Shown piece after piece: positions 14,183-56,660 of a DNA stretch of 64,000 bases; position 1 is the stretch's first letter; each line of letters opens with the position of its first letter. This DNA is from a virus: positions 32,001 through 96,000 of the IMG/VR virus record IMGVR_UViG_3300032334_001019; one strand, written 5' to 3'. The position numbers and the translations under genes were made by a program. The notes below the pieces were generated by a model, which was given only the letters and a program-made list of their open reading frames with translations, searched no databases and was not told the DNA's origin.

Positions 14183-14587
14183 ATGGTAAAAACAGCACTG
14201 GATCTTTTTAATGATCCATTTTTTAATACCTTCTCAAATTTTCAGAAGGTAACAACAACAACAAACTATCCACCTTATAACCAGATTAAATTAAATGATA
14301 CAGAGTATATTCTTTCATTTGCTTTGGCTGGTTTTTCTAAGGATGATGTCTCAGTATCGCTAGACAATCGCAAACTTACAATCAGGGGCGAGAAGCAGGA
14401 TGCTGAGTTGCCAGAGGGTGCAGAGTATCTACATAAGGGCATTGCTGCTCGTAAGTTCACGGATATCTTTACCCTTCCTGAGTTTATAGAAGTTGTTGGG
14501 GCTGAATTTAAGGACGGTATCTTAGATATCAGACTTGAAAAGCAGATCCCAGAAGATAAACTACCAAAGACCATTGAAATTAGGTAG
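14183..14587 (+). CDS. small heat shock protein Hsp20
   Basis: YPPYN, ALAGF, YLHKGIAARKF, DGILDI. Confidence 0.93.
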   Translation: MVKTALDLFNDPFFNTFSNFQKVTTTTNYPPYNQIKLNDTEYILSFALAGFSKDDVSVSLDNRKLTIRGEKQDAELPEGAEYLHKGIAARKFTDIFTLPEFIEVVGAEFKDGILDIRLEKQIPEDKLPKTIEIR

Positions 14588-14599
14588 TATAATAAACTA

Positions 14600-14704
14600 T
14601 TCCGTCATGATACATGCAGTTGCTTTATAAGCGACCTTATTGCTGAGTACGGAGAAACCCTGGATCGCTACCTGGGAAGACCTGAGTAAGTCTGTAAACT
14701 GCTC
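14600..14704 (+). ncRNA. putative structured small RNA ending in the pseudoknot motif
   Basis: TATAAT at 14588; nested stems TCCGT/ACGGA and GTTGCTT/AAGCGAC, hairpin CCCTGG/CCTGGG, then AGAC-CTGAGTAA-GTCT-GTAAAC-TGCTC. Confidence 0.5.
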
Positions 14705-14727
14705 TTTATCATGCTATAATGGTAGTT

Positions 14728-15177
14728 ATGGAAGAATTAATTAATCTACTAAAGGTGCTGCTTGCAGATAATATTACTCTCAAGTTAAAGGCTCATGGCT
14801 ATCACTGGAATGTAGAAGGTGATGATTTTCTTCAGTACCACGAACTTTTTGAAAATATTTATACAGATTATGATGAAGCAACAGATACCTATGCTGAATG
14901 GCTTCGTAAATTAGATACATATGCACCATTTAAACTATCAAGATTTATTCAACTTAATGAAGTTGGAGAACCTGATGTTACTTCAGATCCAATGATGATG
15001 TCTGCAGATCTGCTTATGGCTAATGACATGGTTCTTGCTAAGTTAGTAGATGCTTGCGATATGGCAACATCAAACAAACAACACGCACTTGCAAACTTTT
15101 TTGCAGAGCGTATGGATCAACATCAAAGATGGCACTGGATGTTATCTGTTTCAATTAAAACAGTAGGAGAAGAATAA
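14728..15177 (+). CDS. dps: Dps/ferritin-like DNA protection protein
   Basis: KAHGYHWNVEG..F..YHELFE, D..AE.LR, H.R..WML. Confidence 0.9.
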   Translation: MEELINLLKVLLADNITLKLKAHGYHWNVEGDDFLQYHELFENIYTDYDEATDTYAEWLRKLDTYAPFKLSRFIQLNEVGEPDVTSDPMMMSADLLMANDMVLAKLVDACDMATSNKQHALANFFAERMDQHQRWHWMLSVSIKTVGEE

Positions 15178-20612: not shown

Positions 20613-20685
20613 CACCCCTGGCAGGAATCGAACCTGCGACGCATGGCTTAGAAGTCCATCGTTCTGTCCACTGAACTACAGAGGT
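20613..20685 (-). tRNA. tRNA-Arg(UCU)
   Basis: Acceptor ACCTCTG/CAGGGGT; anticodon loop CTTCTAA; GGTTCGATTCC T-arm; CCA not encoded. Confidence 0.9.
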
Positions 20686-20689
20686 ATTG

Positions 20690-20762
20690 CATCTCCAACG
20701 GAATTCGAATCCGTGTTGCTGCCGTGAAAGGGCAGAGTCCTAGGCCACTAGACGATGAAGAC
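20690..20762 (-). tRNA. tRNA-Glu(UUC)
   Basis: GTCTTCA/TGGAGAT acceptor; TCGTCTAGTGGCCTAGGAC; CTGCC-CTTTCAC-GGCAG. Confidence 0.9.
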
Positions 20763-20766
20763 ATAG

Positions 20767-20840
20767 TACATCTGGAAGGACTTGAACCTTCGGCTCTCCG
20801 CATATAAGGCGGGTACTCTAACCAACTGAGTTACAGATGT
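20767..20840 (-). tRNA. tRNA-Ile(UAU)
   Basis: ACATCTG/CAGATGT acceptor, discriminator A; CCGC-CTTATAT-GCGG; GGTTCAAGTCC. Confidence 0.85.
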
Positions 20841-20844
20841 GTAG

Positions 20845-20919
20845 TACACCAGGTAGGACTTGAACCTACGAATAGCCGAATTATGAGTTCGGTGCCTTAA
20901 CCAACTTGGCTACTGGTGC
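20845..20919 (-). tRNA. tRNA with CAU anticodon (Met or lysidine-type Ile2)
   Basis: GCACCAG/CTGGTGT acceptor; CCGAA-CTCATAA-TTCGG. Confidence 0.88.
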
Positions 20920-27950: not shown

Positions 27951-28177
27951 ACTGGTCTCCCTGTCTTTATCTCTTGCATAAGTTTATCATACTCCTCCCC
28001 CGCTGTCAAGGCAACAACCTCAAAGCGGTCATAGACAATCTTAGGCAGGTTTCTAACTAAATAATAACCAACTCGTTCTAGGTCAATAGAAAAGTCCTCT
28101 GTCATCAACTTGCCAATACGCTCTGCTTGTCGTGTTTCTTTGTTTGCACCATTAAGACTAGTAAGCCTTCTAGACAT
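27944..28177 (-). CDS. hypothetical protein
   Basis: SD GAGGAG. Confidence 0.6.
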   Translation of the reverse strand: MSRRLTSLNGANKETRQAERIGKLMTEDFSIDLERVGYYLVRNLPKIVYDRFEVVALTAGEEYDKLMQEIKTGRPVW

Positions 28178-28260
28178 AGTTCTCCTCTCTATTCATTGTA
28201 CCAAAAAAGTATTGGGGGCGCAAGGTGGCAGGCCCCACGCCCCCTATAGGTAAGGGAGAC

Positions 28261-28623
28261 CTAGGCCCCTACCTCCGCAGCAACAGGTGCATAGGCTAAG
28301 ACAAATACATCCCAGCCAACGGCATTGCCCTGTTCATCAATAACAGTATGATTAATCAAGTCAACAATCACAGTGGTCTCGCCCAAATCATAGTTGGTTC
28401 CAGTGATGGAGTAAATTCCAAAGCCGTGCTCATCCAGAACAGAATCTTGAATAAGATAACTAATCATCATACGGGTGGCATATGATGGATCAGTCCACCT
28501 AGGCTTAGCATGCTCCAGGGCCATGGCAATATCACGACGCCAGCCAGTCTCACCCCAATGGCTGTACAAAACAACTGCAGATGACAGTTCGTCCTTAAAA
28601 ACAAAGTTAATCCGTGCTCCCAT
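28261..28623 (-). CDS. hypothetical phage early protein
   Basis: MGARINF...LYSHWG...RWTDPSYATR. Confidence 0.65.
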   Translation of the reverse strand: MGARINFVFKDELSSAVVLYSHWGETGWRRDIAMALEHAKPRWTDPSYATRMMISYLIQDSVLDEHGFGIYSITGTNYDLGETTVIVDLINHTVIDEQGNAVGWDVFVLAYAPVAAEVGA

Positions 28624-28768
28624 TAGTTTTCTTCCTTCCAAGATACAATTGATAGTTGACTTAAAATTTCATTGCAAAGGTCAGCCTCATTATCTGATTC
28701 AGCCTCATAACTAAATGTCATGTAATCACCTGTTGGTTCAAAGATGATTTCTACTTTATATTCGTTCA

Positions 28769-29224
28769 TTAGATTGCTCCTAGGTCTCTTAGTTCTTCAA
28801 TACTAGCACAGCCTGCACATTTTTGCAACTCCTCAAACTTTTCAAAATGTAGAGTTGCTTGCTCGTCATCCCATATCATCTCACAATTTGGGCATTCGTA
28901 AGATGGTTCGATAACCGATACCTGATAATCCTTGCTTTCATCCCAAGGTACCTCAGTAACAAAATAGCCAATCCTATTAACAATGCAGCGACCATTAATA
29001 ACATAGGTACCCCCATCATCTCCGTCAATGTATGTCCAAGTATATAATGGGTCAGCGTCAGAAACATACTGTACTTCATCACCGTAGGTCTCAAACATAA
29101 TGCCACCTTCGCCATTGTCAAATGAAGCATTTTCATCTAGATGATTGGTGATAGGCTTGTAGGTCTCTAGCCATTCATCAAAGTCTATCTCTATAAGTTC
29201 GTTAGGCAAAGTACTTCTCCTCAA
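28769..29224 (-). CDS. hypothetical phage protein
   Basis: YKPITNHL...MFETYG...VNRIGYFVTEVPW; C-terminal CxxC pairs; start uncertain. Confidence 0.65.
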   Translation of the reverse strand: MRRSTLPNELIEIDFDEWLETYKPITNHLDENASFDNGEGGIMFETYGDEVQYVSDADPLYTWTYIDGDDGGTYVINGRCIVNRIGYFVTEVPWDESKDYQVSVIEPSYECPNCEMIWDDEQATLHFEKFEELQKCAGCASIEELRDLGAI

Positions 29225-29441
29225 TGTTTTTGCGGTCTATAGATAAATTATAGGTCATGCAGTATGCACTTGTCAAGGCTTCCATATACCCTTCCAAAAA
29301 TCTATCAGCATTGCCTTCCATGGCGTACTCGCACTCCAGCATTTCTTGCTTTAGCCACCCATGCATGAGGTCAATCAGAGGTATAGAGATGTCCTCTAAT
29401 GGTTTAGTTAAATATTCGGGGATGAATGGATACTTACTCAT
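29202..29441 (-). CDS. hypothetical protein
   Basis: ORF in early block. Confidence 0.55.
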   Translation of the reverse strand: MSKYPFIPEYLTKPLEDISIPLIDLMHGWLKQEMLECEYAMEGNADRFLEGYMEALTSAYCMTYNLSIDRKNIEEKYFA

Positions 29442-29586
29442 TGATTACTTCAATCAGATGTTTAACAGCATAGATTTGTCCCTCGATATCTACCACATGG
29501 ATAGAGGCTGGGTTTTCTTCAAGGTCTTGTTCAAGACTTATAAGGTGCAGGTTTAGATACTCTTTAAATGTTTTTAGGTCCATATA

Positions 29587-29826
29587 TTAATTATAAGGGT
29601 TGGTGTTGATTTTTACAAGTTTTGCTGGTGTGACCTTCATCACAGGCTCATCGTCAGGTGTTGGATCTTCATCCACATGTGTAACAGTAGTATTCCATTT
29701 GCTTAATAGGATTACATGTGATGTAGCATGGCAAATACAGGCGGGATCAATCTGAGGATTAACAGATGCGCTAATCTCTATAAGAGCATCACAATCAGTA
29801 CAAAGATAACTATACTTAGTCCACAT
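29587..29826 (-). CDS. small zinc-ribbon protein
   Basis: YLCTDCDALIE...CIC; SD AAGGAG. Confidence 0.6.
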   Translation of the reverse strand: MWTKYSYLCTDCDALIEISASVNPQIDPACICHATSHVILLSKWNTTVTHVDEDPTPDDEPVMKVTPAKLVKINTNPYN

Positions 29827-30350
29827 ATTAGTCTCCTTGATTAACTAGATAAGCACGAACTTCTTCCAGGGCATCAATAGCCTGTTCACATACTACAATC
29901 ATATCTTCTCTAGTCATTAGTCAAAATACCCTTCTGCCCATAGACCCTGGAGGAATGCATAGGTCTTAGCCAAACCATCAGAAACAGTTTCATCTGTTGT
30001 GTAATCATGAGCGGTACCAACTGAGTTAATCATTTCATCTAACTCTATTTTAGTATATCCTAGCATTATTCAACATACCCCACAATCATTTGCATAGCCT
30101 GGTGTAGGAAGCAATCGCAATCCCCACCATTCATATTTTCCATTAGTTCAAAGTGTGAGAAGTTATCCTCGTAGATAGCGGTAAGTAGTTCATCTATTGT
30201 GTATGGTTTATAGGTCGTTGTCATAGATTAATTCTACCCTAGACTGGGGAAAAATGCAAGTCATCTTAAAGTTTTTATATAAGAAATTTCATTGTCCGAA
30301 ATGTCCGTTTTTCACGTCCCGCATTTTTATGCATATCAGTGAATAAAAAT

Positions 30351-30378
30351 TGAGCAGTTTATTCTCATGCTCAGGAGA
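30351..30378 (-). ncRNA. pseudoknot motif copy
   Basis: TCTC-CTGAGCAT-GAGA-ATAAAC-TGCTCA. Confidence 0.7.
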
Positions 30379-30386
30379 TTTTTTAT

Positions 30387-31403
30387 TTATGCAATCTGCA
30401 AAGTGCTTTGCACAATTTTGAGCAAACGATTTTTCTCTGCGTTAATTGCAGGGTCAAATCCGCTTGCACTTGCAAGGATAGATTCGTTAGAACCACCACG
30501 AGCAGAACGATACCAATCTAAACGCTCTGTGAGCGCATTGAAAGCGCCCCATGCGTTACCAGCAATCATTCCGTTAAACTCGCCTGTGTAGATGTCGTTA
30601 ATAACATCGACCTTGTTTTCCCACTTCTTGAACGCACCCTTAGAGTCTTTTTCAGGCTTAGGGTATGCAGCAAGAATGATGTCGTTGAATTGCTTAGCAT
30701 TGACTTCTGTTTCAATCATAGCCTTAGCCATGAGGTCAAAAGAATCCATGTACTTATGAGCCATGCCTAATGTCTCACGAGCAACTTGTACCTTGCCAGC
30801 AGCAGTTTGCGTGTGGCGAATCTTGAAAGATTGCTTGATGCCATTCTTACGCTTAGTAGTGTTAAGTGCAAGATTGAGGGTGTTAGCGCACACAACACGA
30901 ACAGGTGTTATGCTTGCTTGAATAGCGATTGAGCCATCGTGTGATGTGTTGATTAGAAGATAAGTCTTTACCTTATCTGCTACACCGTTAGGGTCAAGAA
31001 CTGTTTCACGCTCTAGTGCTAAAGCGCCAAATACTACACGACCACCCTTGATTGAGCCAGCGGTCTCCCAACGACCTCCGCCGTCAAGAATGTTATCACC
31101 AAATGAAAATAAATCTTCATTCTGCATAACATGATAACGCTCACCTACGACACCTAAAATGTCTGTCTGTGAATTATCTGTAGGGTTAGTACGCAAAACA
31201 TACTGGTATGTCTTGTCGCTTGTTAAATGTGATGGGGTTTCCAAATCTTCCAGACGAACATTCCAACCATTGAGGTTTGCAGCCTCTAGCATTTCTGCTG
31301 TTGTTTTTTCTTCTGTAAATACGGTACCCAATCCATGCCAAGCGGGTTCACGAAATGATGCGAATGAAGCCTTACCATTTTGTGTTTCGATTTCATGTGC
31401 CAT
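30387..31403 (-). CDS. DUF932/DUF945-family phage protein
   Basis: MAHEIE, REPAWHGLG, ETAGSIKGG, NTSHDGS, TPVRVVCANTL, IRHT; SD AAGGAG. Confidence 0.9.
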   Translation of the reverse strand: MAHEIETQNGKASFASFREPAWHGLGTVFTEEKTTAEMLEAANLNGWNVRLEDLETPSHLTSDKTYQYVLRTNPTDNSQTDILGVVGERYHVMQNEDLFSFGDNILDGGGRWETAGSIKGGRVVFGALALERETVLDPNGVADKVKTYLLINTSHDGSIAIQASITPVRVVCANTLNLALNTTKRKNGIKQSFKIRHTQTAAGKVQVARETLGMAHKYMDSFDLMAKAMIETEVNAKQFNDIILAAYPKPEKDSKGAFKKWENKVDVINDIYTGEFNGMIAGNAWGAFNALTERLDWYRSARGGSNESILASASGFDPAINAEKNRLLKIVQSTLQIA

Positions 31404-31434
31404 GAGTTTACTCCTTTGTTGTTGTTGAGATTTA

Positions 31435-31463
31435 AGTATAACAGGATGGGCTGACAAATGCAA
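31435..31463 (-). promoter_or_regulatory. promoter TTGCAT-17-TATACT with TGTCAG box
   Basis: Direct reading; upstream of DUF932 gene. Confidence 0.75.
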
Positions 31464-31569
31464 ATCGGGATAGTTAAACATGGGCAATTTGGACATGGGA
31501 AAAGTTTGACTGATCATAACGGCGTGTCGACTTGACAGGGGACGTGGCAAAATTTTGCAGGGATTGAAG

Positions 31570-31597
31570 GAGCAGTTTTAAAACATGCTTAGGTTTT
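31570..31597 (-). ncRNA. pseudoknot motif copy
   Basis: AAAAC-CTAAGCAT-GTTTT-AAAAC-TGCTC. Confidence 0.7.
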
Positions 31598-31612
31598 ATT
31601 AGTAGCCCCCTA

Positions 31613-32026
31613 CTAAATATCGATACGGTCAACACTGGATGATAAATAAGTTACACCCTGTGGTTCTGATACAGAATCAAAATCAATGTCATGAATTAAA
31701 TTCATTGCTGATTCTTCATCTCGTGCATTGACTGTAATTGAATATTGAACTGTAACTTCTAGTTCAAATTCTTTTGATAATTCAAATCCGCAAATATCTG
31801 CAATTGATTGAGCAGTGTCTTCATCAATGGTACCAAATTCCATTGCTTCCAAGGTCCACTCTTGCATTTCGCTACGCATACGGGAGCGCTCTGCAGCCTC
31901 GCCATATGAGCGCTGAGTTACTGTTTGAATGTGCTCTTCAAGTTGCTTGATACGCTCATCCTTTTGTGCAATTTGAGATTGAAGAAAATCTATTGTTGTG
32001 TTTGGTATTACTGTTGTTTGGTCCAT
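31613..32026 (-). CDS. hypothetical coiled-coil protein
   Basis: ORF with own promoter. Confidence 0.7.
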   Translation of the reverse strand: MDQTTVIPNTTIDFLQSQIAQKDERIKQLEEHIQTVTQRSYGEAAERSRMRSEMQEWTLEAMEFGTIDEDTAQSIADICGFELSKEFELEVTVQYSITVNARDEESAMNLIHDIDFDSVSEPQGVTYLSSSVDRIDI

Positions 32027-32058
32027 GGGGGCCTTTTTCTGTTAGTTTGTTTAATTTA

Positions 32059-32088
32059 ATTGTACAGGTGCCCACTGACAAATGTCAA
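32059..32088 (-). promoter_or_regulatory. promoter TTGACA-18-TACAAT with TGTCAG box
   Basis: Direct reading. Confidence 0.75.
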
Positions 32089-32101
32089 GGACCCTTGCGG
32101 G

Positions 32102-32128
32102 AAGCAGTTTAGCGACATACTTAGGTCG
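32102..32128 (-). ncRNA. pseudoknot motif copy
   Basis: CGAC-CTAAGTAT-GTCG-CTAAAC-TGCTT. Confidence 0.7.
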
Positions 32129-32137
32129 TTTATTTAA

Positions 32138-32560
32138 TTAGAGATAACGAGCAACCGCTTGATAAGTTGATGTGGAAACTACTTCCTCATCTGTCATCTT
32201 GAGGATACGAATTGCATTAAGCATTTCCTCTTTTTGCTCATTGTATGTGTGAGCGTGCATAACTGTAAAGTCACGCTGAGGCTCTTTAGGCAAATCCTTT
32301 TCTGCAACTGTTAGGTCATAGTCAATGTTTAGTGTATTGTTCCATGAACGATAGTTGGTGCGGAAGTTTTCTGCCTTCTTGATGTTAGCAATAGCATAGT
32401 CAGAAATCTCTTTCTGCCAAGCCTTACGAGCCTTCTCATACTTTGCTTCGTTTGCTTCTTGTGATGAGTAATCTGACTCTAGTTTTGCTAGTGCAGTTTC
32501 TAGTGCCTTGATTACCTTTGGTGTTGCGATTTTAACTGAGATTGCTTTTCCTCTTGCCAT
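32138..32560 (-). CDS. hypothetical protein
   Basis: ISVKIAT.KVIKALE...AIRILKMTDEEVVSTSTY. Confidence 0.7.
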   Translation of the reverse strand: MARGKAISVKIATPKVIKALETALAKLESDYSSQEANEAKYEKARKAWQKEISDYAIANIKKAENFRTNYRSWNNTLNIDYDLTVAEKDLPKEPQRDFTVMHAHTYNEQKEEMLNAIRILKMTDEEVVSTSTYQAVARYL

Positions 32561-32595
32561 GTGTTAGGTCTCTTTCTGTTAGTTGGGGGGTGAGG

Positions 32596-32624
32596 TAAGC
32601 AGTTTGTATTCATGCTCAGGAATA
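32596..32624 (-). ncRNA. pseudoknot motif copy
   Basis: TATTC-CTGAGCAT-GAATA-CAAAC-TGCTTA. Confidence 0.7.
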
Positions 32625-32630
32625 AGATAA

Positions 32631-32798
32631 TTACTGCTTAGGTGTCCAAGTGGTATAACGAGTCATACCATTAACATCTAACTTTACACGAACATTACCA
32701 TTTGCTTGTGGGTCAATGGCAAGGATTGTGCCTGTAACCTTTGACTTCTGTGAAGTGTATAGGTCGCCTACCTTGTATGTATTTGTTGCTACTGACAT
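32631..32798 (-). CDS. small SH3-like hypothetical protein
   Basis: YKVGDLYTSQKSKVTGTI; SD AAGGAG. Confidence 0.65.
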   Translation of the reverse strand: MSVATNTYKVGDLYTSQKSKVTGTILAIDPQANGNVRVKLDVNGMTRYTTWTPKQ

Positions 32799-32829
32799 TG
32801 TGTTTCTCCTTTTGTTTGTTGATAATCCA

Positions 32830-32858
32830 AGTATAACATTTCCTACTGACATTTTCAA
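32830..32858 (-). promoter_or_regulatory. promoter TTGAAA-17-TATACT with TGTCAG box
   Basis: Direct reading. Confidence 0.75.
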
Positions 32859-33116
32859 GCCAGCCAAGAAAAATCTCACATCTTGGACTACGGGGGTTAT
32901 TTTTTTCATACCTTAATTGTAGCAAGAAAATGTCAAAAATACAAATCCAAGCCCCAACAAGCGGTGTGAGAAAAATCACATCTTAAAGCGGTGTGTCAAT
33001 TTGACAAATGACTGGTCAGCGACGTGGCCCTTTTTCAAGGGGATACTAAGATCCAGATGCACCAAGCATATTAGAAAGAATAACAATAAGAATTAAGATC
33101 ATGAATAACTGTTTCA

Positions 33117-33359
33117 TTACTCTTCGTCTTCAATAAATACATAGAGTGGAATTAAATCAGTATAAGCAAATTGAATAACTTCTTTTTCACCAAACTCATT
33201 TTCTGTTTGAACATCATAGTTATCTCCTGTTGAGTCTGACTCAATAAATACAACCTCAACAATGTCATCACCAATCTTAACTAAATCACCAAGCATTAAC
33301 TGGTCTGGTGTTAAAGTATCTGCGTGGATTAATTCCATAGCATTCATTGTAGCATTCAT
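33117..33359 (-). CDS. hypothetical protein
   Basis: SD GAGG. Confidence 0.6.
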   Translation of the reverse strand: MNATMNAMELIHADTLTPDQLMLGDLVKIGDDIVEVVFIESDSTGDNYDVQTENEFGEKEVIQFAYTDLIPLYVFIEDEE

Positions 33360-33466
33360 TTTATTCCTCAATTCTGTTTTTGTATTTAAGTTTACGAGTG
33401 TATTTCTTTTTATTACGGACAGGGGTAGCCGCATTACTACGGCGTAACTCCTGTATTCGATTAACC

Positions 33467-33775
33467 TTACTCTTCATTACAGATACAATCTTCACAGTCA
33501 CAACTCCAATCATGAGGCAACCATGCATCTAGGTGGTGTTGCTCAATGATAGCCCATGCTGGTGCAGTATCTTTGCCTCTGTAAGATACGCCTTCAGGCA
33601 TCTCAATCTCACGATTAAAGTCCTCGTCATAGGCTGCATCAATAGCATCAATACAAGGCTGAACCATGCTTAGTGGTACTGGAGGATAGTGATTACCTCT
33701 AAGGTGCATGCCAATAGCACTCTCAAGTGATAGATCAATGTTTTCTGCTAAGTCTAGTGCTGTATTCATTCCCAT
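33467..33775 (-). CDS. hypothetical phage protein
   Basis: HLRGNHYPPVP...CIDAI...IIEQHHLDAW. Confidence 0.7.
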   Translation of the reverse strand: MGMNTALDLAENIDLSLESAIGMHLRGNHYPPVPLSMVQPCIDAIDAAYDEDFNREIEMPEGVSYRGKDTAPAWAIIEQHHLDAWLPHDWSCDCEDCICNEE

Positions 33776-34002
33776 TATCGTGTTACCACCATTCCTGTTG
33801 TGTAGAGGGTCTTTGTATGCATCTTACCTGAAGGCTCTGACAAGTTAATTGTTGCGTATTCTTTAGCATCTCCACTATCAACAAACTGCTGAAAAGTTTC
33901 AACGGCACTTAATGCATCTGAGTAGCGACCAACCCAAGTAGGGGTAGGGGCTGAGTCATAGGTACAAGTTACTGAGTATAGGTATTCATTCATTTTATGC
34001 AT
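33775..34002 (-). CDS. hypothetical protein
   Basis: Coupled ORF. Confidence 0.6.
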   Translation of the reverse strand: MHKMNEYLYSVTCTYDSAPTPTWVGRYSDALSAVETFQQFVDSGDAKEYATINLSEPSGKMHTKTLYTTGMVVTR

Positions 34003-34174
34003 TCTCCAATGTGTATTCGTTCATTTCGTTACTAGCATACCATTCGGTGTATTCGTTGTAAAGCGACACACCCAATGAACACTCACAAAATTCTGTGTCG
34101 TATTCACCATGTCCATTACCAAAGAATAGGACACCCTCATCATAGCATTCCATGCAATTCCAATTATTCATTAT

Positions 34175-34384
34175 TTATTCTCCTGTCTTTACGGCAACTG
34201 TTGCCCAAAAATTTTTAATTCCACGAGTGGGGGATACTTCAATGGCATACGCCTCAAAGTTTTCACCATACCAAACACCATCACGCTTTTCTGCGTATAG
34301 GATAGTGCCTTCATCATGGCGAGAGTGTGAGCGATAGTATTTTCCCTCTAAGAGGCTTTCTATTGTATAAGGTTTTGCTGACAT
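34175..34384 (-). CDS. hypothetical protein
   Basis: Follows a TGTCAG-box promoter. Confidence 0.6.
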   Translation of the reverse strand: MSAKPYTIESLLEGKYYRSHSRHDEGTILYAEKRDGVWYGENFEAYAIEVSPTRGIKNFWATVAVKTGE

Positions 34385-34428
34385 GAGCAACCTGCTTTCT
34401 TTTTGTTTAATTACTTTATTACTCTGTA

Positions 34429-34457
34429 ATCCTATCATTTTCTACTGACAAATACAA
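34429..34457 (-). promoter_or_regulatory. promoter TTGTAT-17-TAGGAT with TGTCAG box
   Basis: Direct reading. Confidence 0.7.
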
Positions 34458-34586
34458 GACGACACGCCATAAATCTTAAAAAGTGAGACGCTGGAGAATG
34501 TGAGAAAAATCACACACACTTAAAGTTATACACACCCTGTGGACGACACGCCCGACTGCGGGACGTCAAATTTTAGTTGAAAGTTA

Positions 34587-34614
34587 AAGCAGTTTTAAAT
34601 CGTGCTTAGGATCT
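34587..34614 (-). ncRNA. pseudoknot motif copy
   Basis: AGATC-CTAAGCAC-GATTT-AAAAC-TGCTT. Confidence 0.7.
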
Positions 34615-34634
34615 CCCCTTAGCCTGGCTCCAGA

Positions 34635-34817
34635 CTAAACTAATTCATTTTCTTTAACGCAAGCGTTCCAAAATCTTGTTTCATCAAATCTTGGATTATC
34701 TGCACTAAACCATTCGCTAAATTCAAAAACTAAATCATTAAAAGAATGTGAATCCATTCTGTTGATAAATTGGTTTAGAATGTTTGCAGTTTCTACATAG
34801 TCTTTGCGTGTCATCAT
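34635..34817 (-). CDS. hypothetical phage protein
   Basis: MTRKDYV...DNPRFD..RF..AC. Confidence 0.7.
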   Translation of the reverse strand: MMTRKDYVETANILNQFINRMDSHSFNDLVFEFSEWFSADNPRFDETRFWNACVKENELV

Positions 34818-34819
34818 GA

Positions 34820-35080
34820 TTACTCACCATCCAATTTTAAGAATGCGTAGGACCCACCCTCGTTGATGTGTTCTAATTGTGCAAGGACCTCATCACGAGT
34901 TGTATTTTCTGTAATTGTAAGCAACTCGTCAATCATGCCTTTGTTCATGTTAATAAACATTCCTTCAGGTAGGTTAATTACTTGAGGATAGACAACTGAT
35001 TCAATTTCTACATGAGAAACAAAATCAAATCCTTTATGTGTAAAAGGAAATAGTGCAAAGCGTGTTGTTGTGTTAGTCAT
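34820..35080 (-). CDS. hypothetical protein
   Basis: Coupled ORF. Confidence 0.6.
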   Translation of the reverse strand: MTNTTTRFALFPFTHKGFDFVSHVEIESVVYPQVINLPEGMFINMNKGMIDELLTITENTTRDEVLAQLEHINEGGSYAFLKLDGE

Positions 35081-35274
35081 TAGAGTGTAGCCTTTCCTCG
35101 TAGTGTGCCAGTAATTCCTAGAGTGTCGCAAGCGACTTTAACAGATACACCAACAGGCAAAGTCTGAGGGTATTGTGAAATAAATTGAGCAACCGCACCC
35201 TTGCTAGGGAGTGAGATAGATTTTACTGAACCTGAAAAAGTTTCTAGTTTTACAGTGTATGACATGGATGTCAT
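35080..35274 (-). CDS. hypothetical protein
   Basis: SD GAAAGG; follows a TGTCAG promoter. Confidence 0.6.
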   Translation of the reverse strand: MTSMSYTVKLETFSGSVKSISLPSKGAVAQFISQYPQTLPVGVSVKVACDTLGITGTLRGKATL

Positions 35275-36210
35275 CCTTTCGTTTAAGTGATAAGACTATC
35301 TTATCTTAGGGGGCTGACAAATTGGGCACTTATTTGCTTAGGCTCACTGTGATTTGCATCACATTTATTTGCTAAGGCTCATGCTTATTTATCTTTATTT
35401 AATTGTTATAGTAGCAATACTAGCAGAGAAATGTCAAAAAGTCAAGTCCAAACACGGCGTGTCGCTTGTGATTCGTATCACATTTTACCTGAGAGTAGTC
35501 TGAGAGGCGACGTCGATTTTTTTTGCAGTATTTACAAATTACTTTGTGAATACAAAAAACCAAAAACAATAAATGCAATCATTACAACGAGCATTATTTA
35601 TTCTCCTCATCTTCAAAATCCAAAACTGCTTGATGGTATGCAACGGGGTCTAATTGTTTTAGAATTTGCGAAGGATAAAAGTTTAAGTAACCAATCTGCA
35701 CTACTGGATAAACTAAATCCATGAACTGATCAAATCTATCTTGTAAATCTTGATCCATTACTTATCCTCCAAAACTTCCAAAATTGTTTTTAGTTGTTCT
35801 TCATTTAACAAAACCTGAGCACAACCCCAAAGATAAGCAAGGTAAGTATCTCCACGATTTTCTTTTGCAAGGTTAGTTACCTCTTGTACTAATTCTGTTT
35901 TCATTATGCAATTTCCATTTCATTATAGTCGATAACCTCAAAGTCAATTTGACTTTCAAGGGGCATAGCCTTTAGCCATGATAGTGCAGAGTCAAAATCC
36001 TCTGCTTCAACAGTTACGAATAAATCAAAATTAAAAATAGCCATTTTGTTTATTCTCCTTTCTTGTATAAAAAATCCCAAGCCTTACGGCATAACACGAT
36101 AGAGTTGCAATTATCGCAACAGATAACCCCATGAGGGTTTAACTCGAAATCATAGATGTCTACCATAGTGGTAGTTGCGCCACATACAGAGCGCATAGGT
36201 GCAAAGGTGC

Positions 36211-55511: not shown

Positions 55512-56660
55512 ATGTCAAAACAAGCAGGTAGAATGAGCCAAGGTGCAAATGATTTCTTGGCTCCATACGCACCAACAATAGGAACAGCAACAGATGTCGG
55601 AACAGCACGTCCATATAATAATGGAGCAGCAACCGTAACATTTACTGCAACAGGTCCAAATACAGCGGACTCATTCACAGTTTATGCTGTTGAAGATCCT
55701 ACAAAGACTGCTACTGGCGCATCATCTCCTTTAACAGTAACAGGTCTAGCATCTGCAACAAATTATACATTTAAGGTATATGGTACAAATACTGCAGGTG
55801 GTCGTGGTTCTGATTCTTCAGCATCTAACCAAATTACAGCAACAACAGTTCCTGCTGCACCAACAATTGGCACAGCAACAGATGTTGGAACGGGCCGTGC
55901 ATATAATAATGGTGCAGCAACTGTTACAGCAACTGCAGGAGCAACTGGTGGAAAAGCAATCACTGGATATACTGCACTTTCTAGCGCAGCACAAACAGGA
56001 ACTGCTGCAACTAGCCCAGTAACTGTTGGAGGTTTAGCATCATCAACTGGTTACACTTTTACAGTTAAGGCAACAAATGCTAATGGTGATTCAGCGTATT
56101 CTTCAGCATCAAACTCTATAACAGCAACTACAGTTCCAGAAACTGTTGGCACACCTGGTGTAACAACCGCTGCAGTTGGTGGTTCAGCAGCACAGGGTGC
56201 AGCAAATACTGCAAATGATACAGTTTCATGGTCAGCACCAGCAAATGGTGGAAAAGCAATTGATCTGTATTATTGGACATGTTCAGACGGCAAATCAGGA
56301 AGCACTGCATCTACATCTATAGTTGTAGGACAAGAATCAAATACAGCACAGACATATAGTGTTTATGCACACAACCCTAATGGAAATGGTGGCACTGGAA
56401 CATCTGCATCAATTACATCAGCGTTCTCATTTACACCATTCTCAGTGTTCTCATTTTCACCATTTGGTGTGTTCTCGTTTTCACCGTTTGGTGTTTTCTC
56501 GTTCTCACCATTCGGATTCTCTCCATTTGGATTCTCGCCATTTGGATTCTCACCATTTGGTGTATTCGGATTCTCACCATTCTCAGCAGCGTTTGGTGTA
56601 TTTGGATTCTCACCATTTGGTGCATCGTTTGGCTTTGCACCATTCTCAGCATGGACATAA
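55512..56660 (+). CDS. fibronectin type III repeat virion protein with C-terminal Phe-rich FSPF repeats
   Basis: P.APTIGTAT, SP.TV.GL....YTF.V..TN..G; C-terminal FSPFG repeats. Confidence 0.8.
   Translation: MSKQAGRMSQGANDFLAPYAPTIGTATDVGTARPYNNGAATVTFTATGPNTADSFTVYAVEDPTKTATGASSPLTVTGLASATNYTFKVYGTNTAGGRGSDSSASNQITATTVPAAPTIGTATDVGTGRAYNNGAATVTATAGATGGKAITGYTALSSAAQTGTAATSPVTVGGLASSTGYTFTVKATNANGDSAYSSASNSITATTVPETVGTPGVTTAAVGGSAAQGAANTANDTVSWSAPANGGKAIDLYYWTCSDGKSGSTASTSIVVGQESNTAQTYSVYAHNPNGNGGTGTSASITSAFSFTPFSVFSFSPFGVFSFSPFGVFSFSPFGFSPFGFSPFGFSPFGVFGFSPFSAAFGVFGFSPFGASFGFAPFSAWT

Follow-up and report, generated by a model that had tools for sequence, protein, structure and literature searches.

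A small H-type RNA pseudoknot recurring at the ends of phage genes and its possible role as a roadblock in messenger RNA

In a stretch of 64,000 nucleotides (nt) of viral DNA, positions 32,001 to 96,000 of the IMG/VR virus record IMGVR_UViG_3300032334_001019 (hereinafter, the window), one short intergenic motif appears six times, which raises the question of what kind of element it is and what it does at the ends of genes. A first-pass annotation, made from the sequence alone, had proposed that the motif is a selected H-type RNA pseudoknot located at the 3' ends of transcripts, and had listed among its possible functions a non-canonical terminator, a 3' exonuclease block, a processing or self-cleavage site and a protein- or ligand-binding element. 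The contig from which the window is taken (118,464 base pairs, bp) also carries tail-fibre, ribonucleotide-reductase and auxiliary metabolic genes, and the source therefore is a phage. The element is an H-type RNA pseudoknot of 27-30 nt carried in phage messenger RNAs (mRNAs), as seen from the covariation of both helices over hundreds of copies, so that the structural part of the original proposal stands. The six copies in the window, with the 24-nt core running from C7 to Y30 in the alignment numbering used throughout and with the bit scores of a covariance model, are the following.

30352..30379, minus strand (core 30352-30375): copy 1; stem 1 UCUC/GAGA, loop CUGAGCAU, then AUAAAC and UGCUC; 47.3 bits; begins 8 nt past the stop codon of a DUF932-family gene
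31570..31597, minus strand (core 31570-31593): copy 2; stem 1 AAAAC/GUUUU, A.C mismatch at 10:30; 42.7 bits; starts about 15 nt past the stop codon of the open reading frame (ORF) 31613-32026
32102..32128, minus strand (core 32102-32125): copy 3; stem 1 CGAC/GUCG; 39.3 bits; 9 nt past the stop of ORF 32138-32560, its end about 13 nt upstream of the -35 hexamer in the promoter-like site 32088-32059
32597..32624, minus strand (core 32597-32620): copy 4; stem 1 UAUUC/GAAUA; 41.9 bits; intercistronic, ORF 32631-32798 stopping 6 nt upstream and ORF 32138-32560 starting 36 nt downstream
34587..34614, minus strand (core 34587-34610): copy 5; stem 1 AGAUC/GAUUU with one G.U pair; 34.0 bits; starts 20 nt past the stop codon of ORF 34635-34817
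14678..14704, plus strand (core 14681-14704): copy 6; stem 1 AGAC/GUCU; 40.0 bits; an Hsp20-like gene ends 90 nt upstream and a ferritin/Dps-like gene starts 14 nt downstream

These are exactly the places named in the first-pass annotation, and a reading of both strands together with a regular expression and a pattern search for CC-U-RAGYA-H-G-N5-AAAC-UGCUY yields no further copy in the window. The details given there are reproduced as well: stem 1 differs from copy to copy and nevertheless pairs in all six, RAGYA pairs perfectly with UGCUY in five copies and with a single A.C mismatch in the 31570-31593 copy, the five minus-strand copies lie in sense orientation after stop codons, and the minus strand shows no terminator-like hairpin followed by a T-run at any of the copies. 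In all six, RAGYA and AAAC are separated by exactly 7 nt. The count remains six when up to two mismatches are tolerated, and in the whole 118,464-bp genome a relaxed descriptor with a variable stem 2 brings up no seventh copy either. From composition, 9e-6 exact matches would be expected; 100 dinucleotide shuffles gave a mean of 0.01 matches and none reached six. The covariance model that had been suggested as a check separates the six copies (34-47 bits) clearly from the best other match (12.6 bits).

What is folded, and how, becomes apparent from the alignment of 150 distinct copies (A1), in which the invariant columns are partly imposed by the search patterns. Stem 1, free in sequence, is 4-5 bp long and has C7-G16 as its closing pair in every case; C8 (and U9) make up loop 1; stem 2 joins R10-A11-G12-Y13 to R27-C28-U29-Y30, with U9 often pairing with A31 in addition; and the junction comprises A14, H15 and the dinucleotide 25-26 (CU or AG). 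Loop 3 (NN-AAA-C/A) would run across the stem-1 minor groove. All 150 copies have Watson-Crick pairs at 5:18 and 6:17, with four pair types each, pair 4:19 is formed in 120 of the 150, and C7-G16 is present throughout, although the search pattern forced it. Across the 150 copies, 91.5% of the cells are paired, and the covariation score of 0.453 compares with 0.157 in shuffles (none of 500 reaches it) and with at most 0.133 when the partners are slid. All 148 matches listed from viral contigs have at least three consecutive stem-1 pairs and 118 have at least four, against chance expectations of about 15% and 6%, respectively.

For the pseudoknot helix, pair 10:30 is GC in 113 of the 150 copies, AU in 25, GU in 10 and something else in two (p = 3e-18). 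The pattern fixed most of stem 2, and therefore additional scans were run for changed 3' strands. A C at position 29 goes together with a G at position 11 in 109 of the 111 copies listed, and an A at position 27 with a U at position 13 in 75 of the 105 listed, compared to 35 of 150 for a G at position 27 (Fisher p = 2e-14). Thus, three stem-2 pairs (10:30, 11:29 and 13:27) show compensatory changes, and G12-C28 is constant. The invariance of CU, AAAC and UGCU that the first-pass annotation had noted holds inside the window and breaks down across the family, where UGCU varies with compensation and AAAC-U alternates with AAAA-G. The latter replacement defines a second main subtype with at least 115 good copies, all 115 of which retain A14 although this position was left free, and in which pair 10:30 includes no A.C. 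A covariance model built on stem 1 only (R1) and run over 100 loci recovered further variants in which the remainder is kept, some with two extra bases at the 5' end of loop 3 and others with whole hairpins inserted after the 5' strand of stem 2 and before the 3' strand of stem 1 (L064:6625-6673, L070:3081-3144).

Nested folding accounts for merely -2.8 to -6.5 kcal/mol per copy, which indicates selection on the knot rather than on a hairpin. Neither helix is stable by itself, so that the fold must depend on the knot and on loop-helix contacts, and this reliance is our proposed explanation for the invariant unpaired bases; about 12 bases are invariant across phyla. The fold is also strand-specific, given that the opposite strand would have A.C mismatches in place of G.U and U.G pairs, and 35 of the 150 copies carry U13.G27. 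The same pairs rule out a reading at the level of DNA, such as a promoter or a protein-binding site.

The next question is where the pseudoknot is placed with respect to genes, and here 544 non-identical copies pooled from all scans were considered, with ORFs of at least 60 amino acids. Distances between the stop codon and stem 1 set in sharply at 5 nt, which is also the mode (69 copies); the range of 5-9 nt accounts for 186 copies and that of 5-16 nt for 251, and only eight are closer than 5 nt. This is the bias relative to stop codons for which the first-pass annotation had asked, and the sense orientation it had described extends to the family, with the flanking upstream frame on the same strand in 251 cases and on the opposite strand in 47 (about 5:1). 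In intergenic gaps of 150-300 nt, 65 of 131 copies are located within 15 nt of the upstream stop and 22 of 131 within 40 nt of the next start. Because in such long gaps the motif follows the upstream stop and not the next start, it appears to belong to the preceding gene. Nevertheless, "at transcript 3' ends" turned out to be too narrow a description: placement at gene ends holds, but many copies are intercistronic, and 104 of the 464 copies with two same-strand neighbors lie in gaps shorter than 80 nt. A gene for a transfer RNA (tRNA; Asp, Arg, Ser or Gly) begins 4-13 nt downstream of 17 copies, and no copy has a tRNA gene within 300 nt upstream. Two unrelated head modules of Lactobacillales prophages both have the motif between the minor-capsid and scaffold genes. 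The stop codons that precede the motif are distributed as 124 UAA, 33 UAG and 18 UGA, compared to 1669, 617 and 945 at other ORF ends in the same loci, a background set that includes spurious ORFs (p = 8e-8).

Downstream of the knot, the first 5 nt are poor in G and moderately rich in T, and the 10 nt past the knot contain 3.7 T on average versus 2.7 further on, with at least seven T in 34 of 273 copies. The base that follows the motif is A in 62% of the viral and 43% of the genome copies, and ACC comes next in 22 of 151 viral copies and in 5 of 122 genome copies. A conserved third hairpin, or an ACC...GGU helix, past the knot was considered and ruled out, the GGU being the 5' end of the following tRNA.

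The family is widespread. Four pattern scans of viral contigs and one of prokaryotic genomes each returned at least 112 loci from many phyla; these counts are samples, and hence lower bounds, to which related phages contribute non-independent copies. With the 24-nt pattern, viral contigs yielded at least 120 loci (148 matches listed) and prokaryotic genomes, one per species, at least 118 loci (126 matches listed, 115 of them with at least three stem-1 pairs). The titles of the prokaryotic records include Lachnospiraceae, Enterococcus, Lactobacillaceae, Bacteroidales, Saccharibacteria and other Patescibacteria, Calothrix, Rhodobacteraceae, Brucella, Polynucleobacter, Akkermansia, Chloroflexi and Aminicenantes; the labels of metagenome-assembled genomes (MAGs) among them are weak evidence of the host. 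Overall, carriers include Firmicutes, Actinobacteria, Cyanobacteria, Proteobacteria, Bacteroidota and Patescibacteria. Among cultured phages, Mycobacterium phage Labelle (genus Patiencevirus) has a copy at 56438-56471, 8 nt past gene 85, and Cyanophage S-RIM4 (a Synechococcus phage) has one 12 nt past one ORF and 27 nt before the next; the motif is also present in Synechococcus phage S-EIVl, in Paracoccus phages such as ParKuw1 and in phages of Lactobacillus helveticus (phiAQ113 and relatives among them), johnsonii and gasseri. Matches to Staphylococcus and Vibrio phages in a BLAST search with a 34-nt query fall inside annotated genes or cover the A-rich part only and are probably due to chance. 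The densest arrays are six copies in 4 kb of a prokaryotic MAG contig (L229, 254-3993) and three in 0.9 kb of another locus (L156).

Annotated neighbors of the motif are phage or mobile-element genes (DUF932, ArdA, minor capsid, scaffold). The 190 upstream ORFs fall into 126 clusters and the 143 downstream ORFs into 108, a diversity that rules out a specific partner gene family on either side. Given that the carriers span phyla and that the upstream genes are unrelated, the partner of the motif is more plausibly a universal host machine, or none at all, than a phage-specific protein.

No named family accounts for the motif, in agreement with the first-pass annotation. A search of Rfam 15 with the whole window at the gathering threshold found four tRNAs only; with region 30200-34800 and E-values up to 10 it found four chance-level matches (16-19 bits, to snoRNA and CRISPR models), two of which overlap copy 1 (30352-30379) without any family recurring at a second copy; and with 18 carrier loci (148 kb) it found eight tRNAs only. 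Positions 28001-36000 of the window have no DNA similarity match among GenBank phages. Searches of the literature on phage intergenic pseudoknots, new ribozymes and bacterial or phage exoribonuclease-resistant RNA provided no description of the motif, although motif lists supplementary to comparative-genomics papers could hold one. A preprint that shares a matching 9-mer (bioRxiv 10.1101/2024.06.23.600130) concerns an unrelated 3' end of a plant virus.

Two known elements come nearest to the motif in architecture. One is coremin (xrRNA-C, a class of exoribonuclease-resistant RNA, xrRNA, with the variant xrRNA-WCC) of beny-, cucumo- and other eukaryotic RNA viruses. Coremin is a 3-4-bp hairpin closed by C-G, with a YGAD or YGNNAD loop that forms a pseudoknot with the spacer (PMC10520033); the spacer reads U13 U14 A15 A16 A17 C18 U19 A20 C21, its adenines are essential and insertions at its 5' end are tolerated (PMC6546385, PMC10520033, PMC10321173). 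The papers also describe an obligatory second hairpin, stalling of Xrn1 and of scanning ribosomes, and promotion of -1 frameshifting (PMC6546385, PMC10520033, PMC10321173). The likeness is real. Both elements have a short first hairpin (3-4 bp in coremin, 4-5 bp here) with C-G closure and a loop that begins with C; in the phage motif the closing pair was set by the search pattern, and all 148 viral matches listed have three or more consecutive stem-1 pairs. Both have a spacer made up of two tolerant bases, AAA and C-U-R-C (here NNAAACU(G/A)C), pair loop bases with the 3' part of the spacer, tolerate insertions at the spacer's (or loop 3's) 5' end, and often lie just past a stop codon. Of the spacer types in the phage family, NN-AAA-C-U-G-C is the main one and AAA-A-G-G-C has at least 115 copies, whereas AAA-C-U-A-C, the A27 subtype with at least 105 copies, has a spacer heptamer identical to that of coremin. 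The differences are equally definite: the phage loop has 8 nt (CURAGYAH) with U rather than G as the second base, and so misfits both YGAD and YGNNAD, stem 2 is a regular Watson-Crick helix of 4-6 bp, and the carriers are DNA phages and prophages of bacteria, hosts without Xrn1. No second hairpin of the coremin type is conserved in the 30 nt past the motif among the copies listed (about two thirds of 273), many of which fold at 0 kcal/mol there. With the loop consensus failing and the second hairpin lacking, the phage motif is not a member of the coremin family; by analogy, it may work like one.

The other nearest element is represented by the -1 frameshift pseudoknots of luteoviruses and poleroviruses, of the beet western yellows virus (BWYV) type, which are likewise compact H-type knots of about 28 nt, with a 4-5-bp stem 1, a first loop of 1-2 nt starting with C, a single junction nucleotide and an A-rich loop across the stem-1 minor groove, placed 5-9 nt past the A-site codon. 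In the phage motif, by contrast, the upstream codon is a true ORF stop, there is neither a slippery heptamer nor an overlapping downstream frame, stem 2 is longer and the conserved bases differ. A programmed -1 frameshift signal can be dismissed, considering that the upstream codon is a stop and that what follows is an ORF with its own start 15-36 nt past the motif, or a tRNA gene. The early-gene RNase III sites of phage T7 are functional analogues only: these, too, are repeated sense intercistronic structures in an early region with multiple promoters and leave a protective 3' structure, but they are long imperfect duplexes cut by RNase III, for which the 9-11 bp in two helices of the phage motif are too short. 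The preQ1-I riboswitch (RF00522) and other minimal H-type riboswitches resemble the motif in size (about 30-34 nt), H-type fold and an A-rich tail in the stem-1 groove; the motif differs in giving no Rfam match at E up to 10, in following genes and in having no link to queuosine genes or to any single pathway. In a tRNA-like acceptor pseudoknot, coaxial helices mimic the acceptor and T arms ahead of a 3' RCC(A) tail; the stacked helices of the phage motif amount to 9-11 bp, compared to 12 bp in tRNA.

What, then, could the knot do? The positional data are best fitted by a 3'-exonuclease block or processing boundary, and we tentatively favor, at somewhat less than an even chance, a compact, protein-independent roadblock that would delimit or protect the mRNA 3' end of the upstream cistron. 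From the fold, the strand, the positional rules and the breadth of the family, all of which can be read off the sequences, we infer that nucleases would be blocked and from which side. Under this model, the roadblock would be placed as near the stop codon as the terminating ribosome allows (at least 5 nt, a limit that corresponds to the reach of the ribosomal helicase). Long phage transcripts would be cut or would end downstream of the knot: RNase P would act where a tRNA adjoins, endonucleases would cleave within the single-stranded, G-poor tail, or termination would follow further on; 3'-to-5' exonucleases would then trim back to the knot and stall. Where RNase P cuts at such a tRNA, the upstream message would have the knot and a very short tail at its 3' end. 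The upstream cistron would thus retain a defined, protected 3' end, and cistrons could decay independently. We prefer this explanation because the motif is tied to gene ends and set at the distance from the stop that the ribosome permits, because a site at which the transcript is cut, the 5' end of a tRNA, often comes next, and because the element is weak as a hairpin and yet built like the compact triple-stranded knots that resist unwinding.

Several considerations weigh against such a block at the 3' side. The experimentally studied look-alike, coremin, blocks 5'-to-3' enzymes and ribosomes (PMC10520033, PMC10321173), and protection by the phage motif might run in either direction. In Lactobacillales prophages, the motif lies 50-67 nt before the scaffold genes and its gaps to the upstream stop are -3, 30, 39 and 163 nt, so that protection of the downstream gene fits this placement as well as protection of the upstream one. 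A purely mechanical block has no obvious need for some 12 invariant bases, and the sharp limit at 5 nt is equally to be expected if the terminating ribosome is the target. The ORF calls are crude (first start codon, at least 50-100 amino acids), and many copies come from related phages and so are non-independent, with counts that represent samples.

The principal rival, which we consider unlikely, reverses the polarity: an xrRNA-like block would stop machines that move 5' to 3' (RNase J, RNase E scanning from the 5' end, possibly Rho), so that decay started upstream would stall and the downstream cistron or tRNA would survive, its 5' end capped and protected by the knot. In its architecture and in several bases the motif matches coremin, which stalls Xrn1 from the 5' side (PMC6546385, PMC10520033, PMC10321173), the minor-capsid/scaffold boundary of the Lactobacillales is a place where more downstream expression is needed, and 100 of the 104 short intercistronic copies end within 40 nt of the next start codon. 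However, the preference for the upstream stop in long gaps (65 versus 22 of 131) argues the other way, as do the four of six window copies that precede promoter-containing or long non-coding spacers, where transcripts begun in the spacer would lack the knot, the absence of the second hairpin that coremin needs, and the tRNAs 4-13 nt downstream, which need no 5' shield when RNase P trims their ends. RNase J, moreover, is absent from many beta- and gammaproteobacteria, and copies are present in MAGs labelled (weakly) Polynucleobacter, Coxiellaceae and Gammaproteobacteria. It is less probable, and in our estimate quite improbable, that the knot is directed at the ribosome, abutting the mRNA entry channel of the terminating ribosome so as to stop read-through or sliding and insulate the cistrons. 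The hard lower limit and mode at 5 nt, with 186 of the 544 copies in the range of 5-9 nt that is typical of frameshift-stimulating pseudoknots, would be explained, as would the depletion of UGA, the leakiest stop codon. Coremin also stalls scanning ribosomes and promotes -1 frameshifting (PMC10520033, PMC10321173). About half of the copies, however, are more than 16 nt away from any called stop, including the plus-strand copy at 90 nt, the same lower limit is expected of any structure that is to be kept folded beside a translated ORF, and the UGA depletion is measured against a background with spurious ORFs. Furthermore, we are not aware of any bacterial mechanism on record for which a barrier of this kind would be necessary.

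The terminator that the first-pass annotation had put forward, or a pause signal, with the pseudoknot in place of the GC-rich hairpin, seems to us improbable to a still greater degree. The minus strand of the early region of the window does present the order gene, knot, promoter, and no canonical terminator is predicted there (29800-35000); T is enriched past the knot, and a T-run comes right after stem 2 in copy 1 and in the Lactobacillus phage copies. Nevertheless, most copies lack a T-run, the nested helices are weak, and in prophage head operons a terminator would cut off the scaffold and capsid genes. An element that always stops transcription is unlikely in particular because the 104 of 464 copies in short gaps and the 17 copies that adjoin tRNAs leave no room for a promoter. 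Membership among intrinsic terminators can be set aside, considering the absence of a terminator at the minus-strand copies, the nested energies and the 34 of 273 copies with a T-run. Lower again in our ranking is a processing site, either a tiny self-cleaving ribozyme or a tRNA acceptor-like knot that RNase P would cut between U9 and R10. Like phage-borne small ribozymes, the motif is sense, intergenic, spread over many phyla and present in several copies per genome, its invariant unpaired bases would suit an active or recognition site, and the U before and the A after stem 2 (the latter in 62% of viral copies), the G-C first pair of that stem and the ACC in 22 of 151 viral copies recall an acceptor end. 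But ACC is found after the motif in only 5 of 122 genome copies, a sixth stem-2 pair formed with U9 is the simpler explanation of the A at +1, and at 27-30 nt the element is smaller than any known natural ribozyme; no Rfam ribozyme model, those of the small self-cleaving classes (hammerhead, twister, pistol, hatchet, HDV-like) included, matches at E up to 10 or in the 18 carrier loci. The least probable reading, and a very unlikely one, is that the motif is bound by a small ligand or by a conserved protein of the host and so would regulate the adjoining genes in the manner of a riboswitch or operator. Its size, its H-type shape and its A-rich third loop resemble those of the smallest riboswitches, e.g., preQ1-I, and a dozen or so of its bases are invariant across phyla; the motif is placed after genes rather than in 5' leaders, however, its neighbors share no common function (126 clusters among 190 upstream ORFs), no expression platform, i.e., a terminator or a sequestered ribosome-binding site, accompanies it, and no riboswitch family of Rfam matches.

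The surroundings of the six copies in the window are made up of the following features.

30387..31403, minus strand: DUF932-family gene, 338 amino acids (Pfam PF06067, E 1.8e-47), ahead of copy 1
31613..32026, minus strand: ORF of 137 amino acids, no family assigned, ahead of copy 2
32138..32560, minus strand: ORF of 140 amino acids, no Pfam match, ahead of copy 3
32631..32798, minus strand: ORF of 55 amino acids, no Pfam match, ahead of copy 4
34635..34817, minus strand: ORF of 60 amino acids, no Pfam match, ahead of copy 5
14183..14587, plus strand: Hsp20-like small heat-shock gene, 134 amino acids, named from the look of its translation, upstream of copy 6
14719..15177, plus strand: ferritin/Dps-like gene (Pfam PF00210, E 2.5e-17), downstream of copy 6
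32059..32088, minus strand: sigma-70-like promoter (TTGACA, 18-nt spacer, TACAAT; 11 of 12 positions), directly downstream of copy 3
32858-32830 and 31464-31435, minus strand: similar sigma-70-like sites, consensus matches only

Several of these genes have counterparts next to the motif elsewhere. DUF932 is the commonest upstream gene family (21 of the 190 upstream ORFs in the wider set), and ORF 32138..32560 probably represents the second commonest (13 of 190), judging by its likeness to three members. Relatives of ORF 31613..32026 in four loci (L004, L041, L065, L078) also end with the motif, and five similar upstream ORFs of 138-139 amino acids (L034, L054, L082, L115, L116) precede it as the Hsp20-like ORF does in the window, although the latter is outside the 60-nt limit used in the clustering of upstream ORFs. 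The first-pass annotation had taken copy 6 to close a stand-alone small RNA, a suggestion that found no support: the 90 nt ahead of the copy have a folding z-score of -0.95 relative to shuffles and no Rfam match. The one feature in its support is a TAGTATAAT word at 14588-14600 on the plus strand, immediately past the Hsp20-like stop codon, which could serve as the -10 element for a transcript that runs through copy 6 into the Dps-like gene.

On the minus strand, no promoter-like site is present between copy 4 and ORF 32138-32560. An additional (T)TGTCAG word directly follows the -35 element at 32088-32059, 32858-32830, 31464-31435 and about 34450-34420, which suggests a phage-specific class of promoters or an operator. 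Two identical 16-mers of the form TGTGA-N6-TCACA, the CRP/FNR-type palindrome, occur on the minus strand at 34499-34514 and 32965-32980, in long spacers between a pseudoknot (or the end of an operon) and the next promoter, and may be binding sites of a regulator of the early region. Another conserved element consists of a short GC hairpin and, after it, GCGUGUCGU; it lies at about 34540-34565 on the minus strand and in two related viral contigs (L004 and L106), in each case 20-30 nt past the pseudoknot. The 34383-33060 operon ends in a mini-ORF of 23 strongly hydrophobic codons (33046-33117, minus strand) that overlaps the stop codon of the preceding gene (TAATG), and it closes with a small hairpin, not a pseudoknot. 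A cluster of four tRNAs (20613-20919, minus strand) has no pseudoknot ahead of it here, unlike in several related contigs. Finally, related-phage contigs from four metagenome runs, two of which bear an RNA-Seq label but are probably DNA, jump between places of the window with breakpoints at or beside the pseudoknot copies (30353-30397, 31571, 32089-32103, 32637 and 34543-34612), a weak hint that the motif may mark the boundaries of mosaic modules, or else that the alignments jump between copies.

At its boldest, the roadblock reading would make the motif the first nuclease- and helicase-resistant RNA fold of the bacterial world, a punctuation mark in the operon transcripts of DNA phages from most bacterial phyla, with a core architecture in common with coremin; this is a possibility that we regard as doubtful, and under it viruses of both domains would have arrived at one minimal fold by descent or convergence. 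An element of about 28 nt with a dozen or so invariant bases that unrelated phages and prophages keep must engage some universal part of RNA metabolism. Should it turn out to work otherwise, e.g., as a ribozyme or a ribosome barrier, the motif still constitutes a large undescribed RNA family. If it is indeed an exonuclease or helicase roadblock, it would offer a very small portable part for stabilizing or insulating messages in synthetic operons, would explain how cistrons differ in lifetime without terminators or RNase III sites, and would add the missing prokaryotic counterpart to the viral xrRNAs.

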